From Lentisphaerota bacterium (lineage in GTDB: Bacteria; Verrucomicrobiota; Kiritimatiellia; UBA8416; VGWJ01), in NCBI GenBank assembly GCA_016873635.1, contig VGWJ01000012.1, positions 197-64,196 of the forward strand: 64,000 nt of DNA. The letters run 5' to 3'. Position numbers and translations under genes: made by a program. Position 1 is the stretch's first letter. Every line of letters starts with the position of its first letter. The notes beneath the pieces are model-generated. The model did not search any database. It worked only from the letters and a program-made list of their open reading frames with translations, and was not told the origin of the DNA. Below are positions 1 through 7,037 of the stretch, in pieces.

Positions 1-405
1 GCGCTGCGGGCCGAAGCCGAGGAGTTGCGGCAGGCCATCGCGGCGGAAGGCAAGTTCGGCAGCGTGGAGCAGGTGCTCGGCTCCCTTCTGGACGACCTGT
101 CCGAGATCGAAACCGCGGCCGGCCCGCAGAAGCTCGACCGCGCCTACGTGGCTTTCCACCGCAACCAGGCGCGGCGCCTGGACGTAACGCAGCAGACCCT
201 GGAGCGCATCCGCTCGGCCATGCGCGCGCAGCGCGTCTCCCAGCGCTACGGGATCGGGAAGGTCAAACCGCCCAGCCCGAAGACGACGTGGATGATCATC
301 TACGTTGTGCTTGGTTTCCTGGGTCTGGTAAGTCTACTGTTCTTCGTCCGCTGGTACGGCAAGACCAAGGCCGAGCGGATGGAGGGCGCAGAAGAGGAGA
401 AATAG
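1..405 (+). CDS. Hypothetical protein, 5'-truncated by the window edge. It is soluble with a single C-terminal transmembrane tail anchor.
   Basis: The ORF is open from nt 1 in frame 1 and stops with TAG at 403-405. The C-terminal stretch TWMIIYVVLGFLGLVSLLFFVRW is one hydrophobic helix. It is not an ATP synthase a-subunit, which would have 5-6 TM helices. Confidence 0.4.
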   Translation, partial: ALRAEAEELRQAIAAEGKFGSVEQVLGSLLDDLSEIETAAGPQKLDRAYVAFHRNQARRLDVTQQTLERIRSAMRAQRVSQRYGIGKVKPPSPKTTWMIIYVVLGFLGLVSLLFFVRWYGKTKAERMEGAEEEK

Positions 406-411
406 CGGCGC

Positions 412-1896
412 ATGGCGCTGGCCCTGAAGATAGACGTGCTGAAGCTGATCGAGCACGGCGCCGTGGTCGAGATCCGCCAGGACGTGATCAACGTTCAGGG
501 CCTGACCAACTGCATGAACGGCCAGCTCGTGGAGATCGGCGAGAATGCCGGCCGCGGGGTGATCGTGGGTTATGTGCCCGACCACGTGCTGGTGCTGCTG
601 GTCAAGCAGACCGGGCCCATCAAGCCGGGCGACCGCGTGCGCTCCAGCATGGATGAATTCCGCGTGCCCGTGGGCGAGGCTTTCATCGGCCGCCGCGTCT
701 CGGCGCTGGCCGAGCCGACGGACGGCGGCCCGCCCATCCGCAAGACCGCCACCCAGCCCATCTTCGGCACCGCGCCTTCCGTGATGCAGCGCATTCCCCT
801 CACCGAGGTGCTCGAGACCGGCACGAAGATCATCGACATGATGAAGCCCGTGGGCAAGGGGCAGCGCATGCTGATCATCGGCGACCGCATGACCGGCAAG
901 ACCACGGTGGGCGTGGACGCGATGATCAACCAGCGCGGCAAGAACGTCATCTGCATCTACTGCTGCATCGGCAAGGCCGAGGCGGCGCTGAACCGCGTGC
1001 TGGAGGCCTTCGACGCGGGCCGCGTGTGGGAGTACGGGATCGTCGTGGCGGCCACGGCCTCGGACCCCATGGGCCAGCAGTACCTCGCGCCCTACGTGGC
1101 GGCCAGCCTGGGCGAGTACTTCATGAACGAGAAAGGCGCCGACGTGCTGGTGGTCTTCGACGATTTCACCAAGCACGCCTGGGCCTACCGGCAGATCTCG
1201 CTGCTGCTGGAGCGCGCGCCCGGACGGGACGCCTATCCCGGCGACATCTTCTACATCCATTCCCAGCTCGTGGAGCGCGCCTGCAAGCTCAACCACATCA
1301 AGGGCGGAGGCTCCATGACGCACCTGCCCATCGTGGAGACGCTGCAGGGCGACGTGGCCGGCTATATTCCGTCCAACAGCATCTCCATGACCGACGGCCA
1401 GATCTACATGAACTCCACGCTCTTCGGCGAAGGCTTCAAGCCGGCCATCGACATGGGCCTGTCGGTCTCGCGTATCGGCAACCGCGTGCAGTGGCCGGCC
1501 ATGAAGAAACTCACCGCGATGCTGCAGCTGCAGTTCGTGCGCTACAAGGAGCTGGAGAAGCTCACGCGCATCAAGGCGGGCGTGTCCGCCGACGTCGAGC
1601 AGCGTCTCAAGCGCGGCAAGGTCCTGGAAGAGGTGCTCAAGCAGGAGGCCAACGCGCCGGTGCCCATGGAGGACCAGGTAATCACGCTCTACGCGCTGCA
1701 GAAAGGCTTCCTGGACGGCGTGGAGCCCGCGGACGTGAAGGGGCGCCTGCGTGACCTGGTCGGGCAGGTGCGCCTGCATCGCCCCGACCTCATCGCCGCG
1801 CTGAACGCGCACAAGTCCCTGACGGAGCAGATCAAGGAGGGGTTGGATGAGCAGCTTGGCCGGCTCGCCGGTTCCGCTCTTCAAGATCAAGGTTGA
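412..1896 (+). CDS. atpA: F-type ATPase alpha subunit (paralog 1). The arginine finger is intact.
   Basis: Walker A is GDRMTGKT, and the alpha signatures PYAAASLGEYF and SMTDGQIYMNSTLFGEGFKPAIDMGLSVSRIG are present. The N-terminus is about 20 aa shorter than canonical alpha. The start ATG lies 6 nt after the upstream in-frame stop, so no N-terminal extension is possible. Confidence 0.85.
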   Translation: MALALKIDVLKLIEHGAVVEIRQDVINVQGLTNCMNGQLVEIGENAGRGVIVGYVPDHVLVLLVKQTGPIKPGDRVRSSMDEFRVPVGEAFIGRRVSALAEPTDGGPPIRKTATQPIFGTAPSVMQRIPLTEVLETGTKIIDMMKPVGKGQRMLIIGDRMTGKTTVGVDAMINQRGKNVICIYCCIGKAEAALNRVLEAFDAGRVWEYGIVVAATASDPMGQQYLAPYVAASLGEYFMNEKGADVLVVFDDFTKHAWAYRQISLLLERAPGRDAYPGDIFYIHSQLVERACKLNHIKGGGSMTHLPIVETLQGDVAGYIPSNSISMTDGQIYMNSTLFGEGFKPAIDMGLSVSRIGNRVQWPAMKKLTAMLQLQFVRYKELEKLTRIKAGVSADVEQRLKRGKVLEEVLKQEANAPVPMEDQVITLYALQKGFLDGVEPADVKGRLRDLVGQVRLHRPDLIAALNAHKSLTEQIKEGLDEQLGRLAGSALQDQG

Positions 1897-4719: not shown

Positions 4720-5628
4720 ATGCATCTGAATGAAATACGCAAGGAGCTGCGGTTCAACGCGGAGCTGCTGCACCTGATCGAAACGCTCAAGAACATCGCG
4801 GGAGCGCAGTATCACGTGATGGAAAAGGAAAAAAGGCGTTTCGACCAGTTCATGGACGCGTTCTCGGGCTTCTTCCGCGTGGTGGACATGGTCGAGGTGG
4901 CCAACCCGCTGGTGAGGGTCGTGTCCGACGTTCTGGGCGTGGTGATCGTCACCTCGGACTCCGGGTTCATGGGCGGCTTGAACCAGGGCGTGCTCCGCGC
5001 GGCGATGCACGCGGTGGGCGGGCTGACGCCCGACAGGTTTTCCCTGACGGTGATCGGCGACAAGGGCGCCACCGCGATCGCCGACCGGGGCTACCGCTTC
5101 AAGTTCTTTCCGGGCATTGCCCAGGACCGCATCTACGAACAGGCGGTGGAGGTGCGGGACCACGTGGTGCGGGAGGTGCTGGAGCGGCGCATGGGCAAGG
5201 TGATCTTGGCCTATCCGCGTCCGCTCTCCTTCACTTCGCAGCGCGTGGAAGCGATCAACCTGCTGCCCTGCGGCGAGCTGTTCGACCGCCAGGCCAGGAG
5301 CGAGGTGTCGCGCCGCGCCGGCGCGGCGCGGTTCATTGCCGAGGCCGGCAAAGTCATCGTGGAGTCGTCGCTGGCCGACATGCTCGAGTACCTGTCCGCC
5401 GTGTGGGTGACCTCCAAGCTCTTCGAGGTCTTCGAGGACAGCAAGCTCGCCGAGTTCTCGGCCCGCGCCATGCACCTTGACGGCAGCCAGCAAAAGGTCG
5501 AGAAGGAATACAAGCGGGTCAAGCATCTGGCCTCCAAGGCGGCGCACGAGCTGATCGACAAGGGCATGCGCGAGAGCTTCGGCGCCACGAAGAAGAAACG
5601 GGAACGCAAGACCGCGCGGGCGGCGTGA
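4720..5628 (+). CDS. atpG: F-type ATPase gamma subunit.
   Basis: It has the [13 protein letters not shown] motif and is about 300 aa, in the conserved position between the b/delta and beta genes. Confidence 0.75.
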
Positions 5629-5639
5629 GGAGAGACACA

Positions 5640-7037
5640 ATGGCTGACGCAGCTGCGGCAACGGGCGGCAGGACCGGAAAGGGGCGGGTCACCGCGGTGC
5701 AGGGACCCGTCGTGGACGTGACCTTCGACAGCGTCGAGGAAATGCCCGATCTGCACGAGACGATTGTGACCAAGACGTTCGACAAGCGCGAAGTGAGCAT
5801 GCTCGTGGCCGAACACCTGGAAGGCAACATCGCGCGCTGCGTTTCGCTGGTCTCGACGCAGAACCTGCAGCGCAACGCGCCGGCGCGCGCCACGGGCGGC
5901 CCGCTGCGCGTGCCGGTGGGCGACGAGCTGTTCGGCCGCATCATCAACGTCATGGGCCAGCCCATTGACGGCAAGGGGCCGGTCACGGCGGCCGAAACCG
6001 CGCCCATTCACAGGGACATCAGCAAGATCGCCGTGGACGTGGACAGCCTCGCCGGGGGCAAGGCCGAGATCGTGGCCACCGGCATCAAGATCGTGGATCT
6101 GCTGTTCCCGGTCGTGCGCGGAAGCAAGACCGGGGTGATCGGCGGCGCCGGCTGCGGCAAGACGGTGCTGATCATGGAGCTGATTCACAATATCGTCGAG
6201 GAGCATGAGGGCGCCTGCGTGTTTGCGGGCATCGGCGAGCGCATCCGCGAAGGCAACGAGCTGTATTTCGAGTTCGAGCAGGTCGGCATTCTGGACAAGG
6301 TCATGATGGCGTTCGGCCAGATGGACGAACCGCCCGGCGCGCGTTTCAACGTCGTGCAGACCGGCATCACGCTGGCGGAATACCTGCAGCAGAAGGGGCG
6401 CGAAGTGCTGCTGTTCATGGACAACGTCTACCGCTTCGTGCAGGCGGGCGCGGAGATCTCCACCCTGCTGGGGCGCACCCCCTCGGAGACCGGCTACCAG
6501 CCGACCCTCAGCTCGGAAGTCGGCGAAATCCACGAGCGCATCAAGGGCTCGGTGTCGGCCTTCGAGGCCGTGTATGTGCCGGCCGACGACCTGACCGACC
6601 CGGCGGTGGTGGCGATCTTCAGCTACCTGGACGCCGTCATGGTGCTGTCGCGCGAACGAACGCAGCTCGGGCTGTACCCGGCGATCGATCCGCTGGCTTC
6701 TTCGTGCTCCAACCTGGACGCCGCCATCGTCGGGCAGCGGCACTTCGATATCGCCCAGGAGCTGCTGCGCATCCTGACGAAGTACGACGAGCTGCGCCGC
6801 ATCGTGGCGGTGATCGGGCTGGACGAGCTTTCCAAGGCTGACCGGACGCTTTACGAACGCGCCAGAAAAGCGCAGAATTTCCTTACCCAGCCCATGTTCG
6901 TGGCCGAATCCTACGTGGGCAAGAAGGGCGAGTTCGTCACCACCGGCGAGACGCTGGACGGGTGCGAGAAGATCATCGACGGCGCCATGGACGACCGCGG
7001 CGAGGAAGAGTTCTACATGATCGGGAAGATAGCATGA
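5640..7037 (+). CDS. atpD: F-type ATPase beta subunit (catalytic), with an atypical Cys in the P-loop.
   Basis: The P-loop reads GGAGCGKT where the canonical sequence is GGAGVGKT. The catalytic [11 protein letters not shown] motif is present, and the DELSEED region reads DELSKAD. ATG 5640 follows a GGAGAGA RBS, and the listed ORF start at 5625 is a GTG overlapping the gamma stop. Confidence 0.85.

Follow-up and report, generated by a model that had tools for sequence, protein, structure and literature searches.

F-type ATPases are the textbook example of a rotary motor coupled to ion flow. The closest described relatives of the system considered here come from Omnitrophota, many of which, according to Seymour et al. 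(2023, Nat Microbiol, PMC10066038), carry a 'non-respiratory' or 'symbiotic' F-type ATPase by type-4a pilus genes, in addition to a separate 'respiratory' clade of alpha subunits in the phylum. The same paper reports ATPase and pilus genes within 10 kb of each other on 57 of 66 contigs and proposes, from genomics alone, a role in attachment or motility. Here we describe an F-type ATPase gene cluster at the start of a 64-kb stretch of contig VGWJ01000012.1 from a Lentisphaerota bacterium (hereafter the window), which belongs to a metagenome-assembled genome (MAG) of 66–70% GC obtained from Lake Tanganyika samples (locus-tag prefix FJ225). We argue, with a probability of about 0.6, that these genes encode a specialised F-type derivative without an a subunit, which would act as an ATP-hydrolysing motor for a secretion, pseudopilus or giant-protein apparatus rather than in ATP synthesis.

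The phylum, the duplicated and sub-functionalised alpha subunit and the gene order are new here; the kind of system, an F-type ATPase next to pilus genes, is already known from Omnitrophota, from genomics only. Features added here for the family as a whole are a protein that we call X, the lack of a nearby a subunit, a c subunit that can do without its carboxylate, a lysine in place of the arginine finger of alpha, and a minimal stator. The passages of PMC10066038 that were examined do not describe protein X, the dispensable carboxylate, the lysine finger or a truncated stator, and its main text, as far as it was searched, contains none of the terms 'subunit a', 'c-ring' and 'Kiritimatiell'. 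A literature search on the ATPases of Kiritimatiellia returned nothing relevant, and West-Roberts et al., writing on giant genes, mention loci resembling type II secretion systems (T2SS), but not an F-type ATPase.

A second point of comparison, and a functional precedent for engines derived from F1 that drive surface machinery, is provided by the F1-like ATPases of Mycoplasma (PMC12994834), where the type 2 enzyme is the gliding motor of M. mobile and the type 3 enzyme (F1-like X0) is needed for antibody cleavage by the MIB-MIP system. Like the window, these systems have homologues of alpha, beta, gamma and epsilon and no a subunit, and they are ATP-consuming engines of machinery on the outer face of the membrane, genetically linked to large surface proteins. 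They are described as containing alpha-, beta-, gamma- and epsilon-like subunits together with unrelated membrane proteins of 12 and 2 transmembrane (TM) segments, with c, b and delta not listed. The window proteins stay below the cutoffs of the Mycoplasma models (MMOB1660, 378 against 600; MSC_0619, 288 against 520; MMOB1670, 416 against 850; MSC_0618, 388 against 570), and alpha and beta score higher on the ordinary atpA and atpD models than on these.

Composition and conservation of the cluster

Subunits were identified by Pfam and NCBIfam profile searches of the window proteins, and the matches to every ATPase subunit family are far above chance. The cluster lies on the forward strand and begins with the C-terminal end of X (1–405; 134 codons). 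It continues with the F1 alpha-type alpha1 (412–1896; ATP-synt_ab, E-value 4.8e-69; atpA model TIGR00962, 507 bits against a curated cutoff of 484) and its paralogue alpha2 (1847–3328; ATP-synt_ab, 5.5e-70), which is 44.6% identical to alpha1 and overlaps it by 50 nt. Then follow epsilon (3390–3617; ATP-synt_DE_N, 2.7e-12), c (3649–3837; ATP-synt_C, 1.5e-7), a b/delta fusion (3877–4623; OSCP, 6.5e-11; alt_F1F0_F0_B, 1e-11), gamma (4720–5628; 302 aa; Pfam, 8.7e-25) and beta (5640–7037; 465 aa; atpD model TIGR01039, 549 bits against 463). The closest solved structures to alpha are bacterial F1 alphas (E-values 1e-124 to 1e-130). The gene gspE begins 105 nt after beta with no terminator-like site seen in the tightly packed intergenic region, and the whole of 1–20752 forms a run of genes on the same strand, separated by short gaps or overlapping. 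The ATPase genes and the open reading frames (ORFs) downstream of them show high third-position GC, as in real genes of a genome of this composition.

These searches uphold the gene list of a preliminary description of this DNA, which had read the order as alpha-alpha'-epsilon(short)-c-b/delta-gamma-beta and had set it apart from both the canonical order atpBEFHAGDC and that of the N-ATPases. The families of alpha, beta, gamma, epsilon, c, b and delta are shared with canonical F1Fo enzymes. In contrast to these, the window has no nearby a gene, a c carboxylate that is non-essential in the family, a delta that consists of the C-terminal domain fused to b, shortened alpha N-termini, an epsilon without C-terminal helices, two alphas, and an obligatory linkage to X and to secretion genes. 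The N-ATPase operon, atpDCQRBEFAG, contains genes for a, AtpQ and AtpR. N-ATPases resemble the window in having a b subunit of about 246 aa and no separate delta gene, but the gene order is different and the Q, R and a genes are absent from the window. The corresponding alt_F1F0 models (TIGR0330x/0332x) are matched far under their cutoffs (465–476 bits against 750, 507 against 752, 45 against 225 and 22 against 282), including TIGR03321, the N-ATPase-type b, which is the best NCBIfam match of the b/delta fusion with 45 bits.

Relatives were mapped through X in a scan of one genome per GTDB species, with flanks examined to ±10 kb of X. The 51 positive genomes are MAGs and one single-cell genome, with no cultured isolate among them. 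About 46 are bins of the PVC/Kiritimatiellia type that carry the label Kiritimatiellia, Lentisphaerae, Victivallales or Verrucomicrobia. Omnitrophota account for three, and a further unclassified bin (L058) has an Omnitrophota-like variant arrangement. One bin labelled Gammaproteobacteria (L022) probably reflects a binning or labelling error. The order X-alpha-alpha'-epsilon-c-b/delta-gamma-beta-GspE-GspF is kept in the ~46 Kiritimatiellia-type MAGs at every locus long enough, and it is identical around three diverged X homologues (38–42% identity). L016 lacks alpha2 (X-alpha1-eps...), and L041 lacks gamma, beta and GspE after b/delta.

The usual order in Omnitrophota is X-epsilon-c-b/delta-alpha-gamma-beta-GspE-GspF, which reads as the canonical succession c-b-delta-alpha-gamma-beta with X-epsilon in the place of a. 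Compared with this order, alpha in the window is duplicated and moved to the front (X-a1-a2-eps-c-b/d-gamma-beta versus X-eps-c-b/d-alpha-gamma-beta). Omnitrophota loci share with the window X (25–34% identity), c (61–87%), alpha (47–51%) and beta (53–65%), as well as the GspE/GspF neighbours, and giant genes are found nearby in both phyla. As in the 'symbiotic' locus of Omnitrophota, the F-type ATPase genes of the window lie less than 10 kb from genes resembling those of type-4a pili and T2SS (gspE, gspF, gspG), and the same is true of all related loci. In a neighbour-joining tree rooted on beta, the alphas of homologous Omnitrophota loci group with the window alphas; from these recovered homologues, we infer a probable membership of the window alphas in the non-respiratory clade of PMC10066038.

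Two variant arrangements bear on the association with secretion genes. L055 has the order X-eps-c-GspE-b/delta-alpha-alpha-gamma-beta, with GspE between c and b/delta, while L058 has X-b/delta-PepMA-c-alpha-gamma-beta-GspE-eps-GspF-GspG, with epsilon between GspE and GspF. The linkage of GspE/GspF to the ATPase is kept in every locus long enough to tell. The adjacency to a type II secretion cluster on the same strand, pointed out earlier for the window, is thus a conserved link, and the two gene sets interleave in Omnitrophota. That the genes are interleaved in one lineage and invariably adjacent in the other is good genomic evidence for a shared function.

With the window proteins as reference, median identities of the relatives are 90% for c, 79% for beta, 68% for alpha1 and epsilon, 66% for GspE, 63% for alpha2, 62% for gamma, 55% for GspF, 52% for b/delta and 40% for X. 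These values bear on the question, raised in the preliminary description, of whether the enzyme is specialised or degenerate. A decaying, functionless remnant of an ATP synthase might be expected to show what is seen here in part: a is missing, epsilon is truncated and delta shortened, L016 has lost alpha2 and the L041 cluster is truncated. However, all eight ORFs are intact in the window and in ~45 species, third-position GC is normal for coding sequence, c and beta are far better conserved than the neighbouring X, the catalytic motifs are invariant, and the truncated L041 cluster comes from a contig of 0.4x coverage. The high identities and intact ORFs therefore indicate purifying selection on an intact machine, present in ~50 species, and we regard decay as extremely improbable.

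The missing channel, the rotor and the catalytic head

Region 1–7037 contains no a-subunit gene, as had been stated before. ATP-synt_A (PF00119) is also absent among essentially all predicted genes of the 64-kb window (Pfam; JGI gene calls for 31–41 kb). A JGI contig with identical proteins (L001) reaches 4.7 kb upstream of the window, and no a subunit was found in these 4.7 kb; the genes there are X and then a divergently transcribed DUF3943 gene, which rules out the scenario of an ordinary atpB just 5' of nt 1. Nor was an a subunit found within ±10 kb of X in the 51 GTDB species, a search limited to these flanks, and E. coli AtpB gave no blastp match to the six-frame ORFs of all loci. A hydropathy scan of about 50 loci yielded seven polytopic ORFs, six of them in other Pfam families and one without a Pfam match; the families are TrkH, PHO4, P-type ATPase, DUF7544 and a small multidrug exporter, their positions are not conserved, and none is ATP-synt_A. 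X itself was considered as a disguised a subunit, which is ruled out by its single TM helix and periplasmic body.

The c subunit of the window (62 aa) is a two-helix hairpin with an RNP loop. No other protein of the cluster is as strongly conserved, and the RNP loop, which makes the contact to gamma and epsilon, is invariant. Glu45 (codon 3781–3783) aligns with the ion-binding carboxylate of solved c-rings. This residue is replaced in five of 49 species loci, by Met in L010, L016, L026 and L041 and by Gln in L057, and the operon of L010 is complete despite the Met. Among the best 120 c clusters, Glu is found in 94, Met in 24, and Tyr and Gln in one each, such that 26 of 120 are non-acidic, with the remainder of c 81–97% identical. 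The carboxylate is dispensable within the family. Single-hairpin c subunits that lack a carboxylate altogether cannot form an ion-carrying ring.

The length of the first c helix varies by lineage. Most gene calls give a c of 70–72 aa with an additional hydrophobic N-terminal segment, 'MxNFxIFLV', while the window c begins at the second Met because a stop codon lies just upstream.

Epsilon comprises 75 aa and only the beta-sandwich, and the orthologue alignment stops at 'LVEE' in most species, in line with the earlier remark that the inhibitory C-terminal helices are missing. The beta catalytic motifs that were checked, covering the P-loop, the catalytic Glu and Walker B and including DELSKAD and DNVYRF, are all intact and conserved among relatives. 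Together with the invariant RNP loop, they suggest that ATP hydrolysis and the coupling of gamma and epsilon to the c-ring are preserved.

The alpha subunits depart from this pattern. Alpha1 keeps the P-loop (GDRMTGKT) and SVSRIG, but its arginine finger is replaced by Lys (GFKPAID, canonical GIRPAIN; window 1432–1479, GFKPAIDMGLSVSRIG). Alpha2 keeps the P-loop and the arginine finger (GFRPAID), with SVSR changed to SLSI (SLSIVG; window 2873–2920, GFRPAIDFGLSLSIIG). The Lys finger is found in nearly all alpha1 orthologues and in most single-alpha forms of Omnitrophota; alpha2 keeps Arg. In E. coli F1, exchanging the arginine finger of alpha for Lys lowers activity about a thousand-fold. The tree of alphas places the alpha1/alpha2 split inside the Kiritimatiellia-type lineage and the duplication in L055 (Omnitrophota) as an independent event.

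The loss of motifs is complementary between the two window alphas, with the Lys finger and SVSR in one and the Arg finger and SLSI in the other. A similar split is seen after the independent duplication in L055, where one copy has R and SVSRIG and the other K and SISTVG.

The connection between head and stator is also modified. Both alphas were previously thought to lack about 20 N-terminal residues; the shortening is real, but smaller, at ~13–15 residues for alpha1 and roughly 9 for alpha2 relative to E. coli alpha and solved alphas. Both keep short conserved N-terminal motifs, 'PLFKIK' in the case of alpha2. The b/delta fusion consists of an N-terminal TM segment, a continuous helix of ~115 residues, a second helix and an alpha/beta domain resembling the delta C-terminal one. 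In its AlphaFold2 model (predicted local distance difference test, pLDDT, 87) these correspond to a helix of residues 2–140, a second helix of 143–163 and a small alpha/beta domain of 176–246. The model has no delta N-terminal bundle, which bears out the expectation that the protein is too short for this domain. The stator joint is reduced, with the delta N-terminal bundle absent from the model and the delta-binding helix of alpha partly lost.

The simplest alternative to a specialised motor is an ordinary ATP synthase, or a proton-pumping ATPase, with an odd gene order and its a subunit encoded elsewhere. Every other F1Fo subunit type is present, alpha1 and beta reach the atpA and atpD cutoffs, 94 of 120 clusters retain the Glu of c, and split atp operons are known in other bacteria. 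Such an enzyme is difficult to reconcile with the 26 c clusters without a carboxylate, a loss that would abolish ion translocation by the c-ring and that occurs at least once (L010) in a complete operon, or with the Lys finger of alpha1 and the absence of both the N-terminal domain of delta and the N-terminal helices of alpha from which a normal stator joint is built. In two phyla the genes are obligatorily linked to X and GspE/F, with interleaving, and an orphan atpB would have to persist apart from the operon in ~50 species in which c and b remain part of it. The 'respiratory' alpha clade that PMC10066038 distinguishes in Omnitrophota also speaks against this alternative, which we consider quite improbable. 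The lack of a nearby a subunit, the replaceable carboxylate and the Lys finger of alpha1 together argue against a chemiosmotic enzyme.

Protein X and the secretion genes

Full-length X has 437 aa (gene L001:3392–4705) and starts 908 nt before the window. It starts with a cleavable-looking signal peptide, followed by two repeats of an immunoglobulin-like beta-sandwich plus a three-helix bundle. A linker then leads to the single TM helix, and the protein ends in a short basic tail (AlphaFold2 pLDDT 84). The partial ORF at the start of the window had been described as a tail-anchored soluble protein and not subunit a. The second part of this statement holds, given the single TM helix, while the first does not: the full-length protein is of type I topology, with a signal peptide, a periplasmic body and a C-terminal TM helix. 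Conservation among 22 homologues peaks at the C-terminal 'KPPSxKTTWxIIYIILGFLxxxSLLFFxRWYGK', and about 15 of roughly 63 invariant or near-invariant alignment columns fall in the last ~30 residues.

X belongs to no Pfam family and has no significant fold match in the PDB. In a full profile search the family comprises 949 clusters (50% identity; E-values up to 0.001), among them larger proteins of 600–2,000 aa that carry the X module at their C-terminus. In L057 and several representative proteins it ends proteins of 1,200–2,000 aa, with an ORF of at least 1,953 aa in L057. The ATPase genes are immediately preceded by X at all loci examined, including those reached via c instead of X. In one Omnitrophota locus, a 190-aa 'half-X' paralogue (L065:7811–8383), with a signal peptide and one beta-sandwich/helix repeat and without a TM helix, precedes X.

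Accessory proteins of the V-ATPase, Voa1 and Ac45-ATP6AP1, ATP6AP2, sit inside the c-ring and have type I topology. X resembles these proteins in its signal peptide, its bulky extracytoplasmic part, the lone TM helix at the C-terminus and the short cytoplasmic tail, and in its association with a rotary ATPase, by gene position or by assembly. Similarity to X was detected neither in sequence nor in fold.

Most relatives carry a giant ORF on the same strand, just upstream of X; it extends beyond the 10-kb flank and so has at least 3,200 aa, with Laminin_G_3 domains where annotated. Examples are L007:1–9743 and L065:1–7781, and similar ORFs are found in L010, L011, L013, L014, L019, L021, L024, L029, L036, L038, L041, L044, L046, L051, L055 and L058. 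This ORF is absent from the window's genome, where the divergent DUF3943 gene follows immediately beyond X. The ATPase thus appears to be one module of a larger cluster composed of a giant adhesin-like protein (in most relatives), X, the ATPase and type II secretion/pseudopilus-like genes.

The secretion genes of the window, all on the forward strand, begin with a GspE/PilB-type hexameric ATPase with an N-terminal MshEN domain (7143–8780; 3e-129) and a GspF/PilC-type inner-membrane platform (8905–10068). They continue with a Peptidase_MA_2 protein (10149–10976), GspG (10973–11488), a pseudopilin (11597–12079), a GspJ-like protein (12098–12796), GspK (12809–13918) and a GspL-like PilM/PilN fusion (13923–15377). 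A single-TM protein of no known family (15374–15928) comes next. The last genes of the run (16072–20752) encode a MORN-repeat protein (six repeats), a pair of family-less proteins of 460 and 349 aa, each with one N-terminal hydrophobic segment, and a PEP-CTERM protein. The parts of a type II secretion system that are present are therefore E, F, G, J-like, K and the PilM/PilN fusion, together with three downstream proteins without a family; a secretin and a prepilin peptidase were not detected among the predicted genes of the 64-kb window. The remainder of the window encodes housekeeping proteins, among them SurA, RecO, KARI, NifU/NifS, EF-G, gyrase, EF-P and Obg, as well as glycosyltransferases, and contains no atp genes.

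Two features of these neighbours deserve mention. The N-terminus of GspE (7143–7600) matches MshEN (Pfam, 3e-20) and, below threshold, the model NF053729 for a cyclic di-GMP-binding motif, which suggests that GspE is under cyclic di-GMP control. The Peptidase_MA_2 gene is located between GspF and GspG in the window and several relatives, while its homologue in L058 (L058:11548–12456) lies between b/delta and c; this protein may be a genuine component of the system.

The secretion context raises another possibility, namely a non-rotary, membrane-tethered chaperone or export ATPase, in which the alpha/beta hexamer and gamma would act like FliI/FliJ/FliH, with c and b/delta as mere anchors, to energise or gate the export of pseudopilins or giant proteins. 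F1 and the FliI/FliJ/FliH complex of type III secretion are homologous, the window proteins match FliI/SctN models at 1e-45 to 1e-55, and the genes are associated with a secretion system, to which relatives add giant exported proteins. The Lys finger, suggestive of slow or regulated hydrolysis, would also fit. However, the FliI/SctN matches score ~185 bits, compared with 507–549 bits for F1 alpha and beta, and the full rotor (gamma, the epsilon beta-sandwich and c with its invariant RNP loop) is strongly constrained, c most of all, which is hard to explain for a mere anchor. We consider a non-rotary enzyme of this kind, including its role in gating or energising export, unlikely.

A putative mechanical role

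The intact, conserved cluster and its synteny support the earlier view of a non-canonical, probably specialised rotary ATPase tied to secretion genes. In the mechanism that we favour, beta would hydrolyse ATP, and the gamma-epsilon-c-ring would turn against an alpha/beta hexamer held by b/delta. Since an ion path appears to be absent, the torque would be used neither for ion pumping nor for making ATP, and would instead be handed to a membrane or periplasmic partner belonging to the co-encoded secretion, pseudopilus or giant-protein apparatus. X is the leading candidate for this partner and torque receiver, because its TM helix is its most conserved part and its topology is that of the V-ATPase accessory proteins found in the c-ring; alternatively, X may serve as a stator anchor. 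The two alpha paralogues probably render the hexamer asymmetric, which could make its catalytic sites unequal or offer the stalk separate docking points. The work may be used for pseudopilus dynamics, for handling of the giant adhesin, or for surface motility as proposed by Seymour et al.

A more specific version of this mechanism is an ATP-driven transmembrane drive shaft, in which a c-ring without a channel, able to dispense with its carboxylate, carries or engages the TM helix of X and turns the periplasmic body of X for a secretion or pseudopilus-like machine. We put this forward tentatively, as a proposal that is somewhat doubtful in its details.

Several observations weigh against an ATP-driven motor without ion flow. 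Glu is kept in the c subunit of this window and of most members, and ion binding could still matter. No covariation was found between the Glu or Met state of c and either the polar residue of the b/delta TM segment (His or Gln, position 15) or Arg420 of X. Given the Lys finger, the enzyme may be slow or may work differently. The search for an a subunit covered the loci, which leaves room for an atpB elsewhere in the genome, or for this enzyme as the only ATPase of the cell. Rotation, ATP hydrolysis and contacts among X, the c-ring and the secretion proteins are all inferred from sequence and gene order.

The retention of rotor and catalytic head, together with a dropped channel subunit and an ion-binding residue that can be lost, suggests the reuse of an F-type rotor for purely mechanical work across a membrane. 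The complementary motif loss in the two alphas, the Lys 'finger', the carboxylate-free c-ring and the minimal stator can be viewed as natural experiments, and X represents a large, unannotated family without a structural relative. If the drive-shaft proposal is true, this system would add a new class to the envelope motors of diderm bacteria, separate from those of flagella, Ton/Tol, gliding (GldLM) and type IV pili, and would be the first F-type ATPase with a heteromeric set of alphas. The family spans two phyla of uncultured, possibly predatory or host-attached bacteria, in which it is a candidate power source for attachment, secretion or movement.

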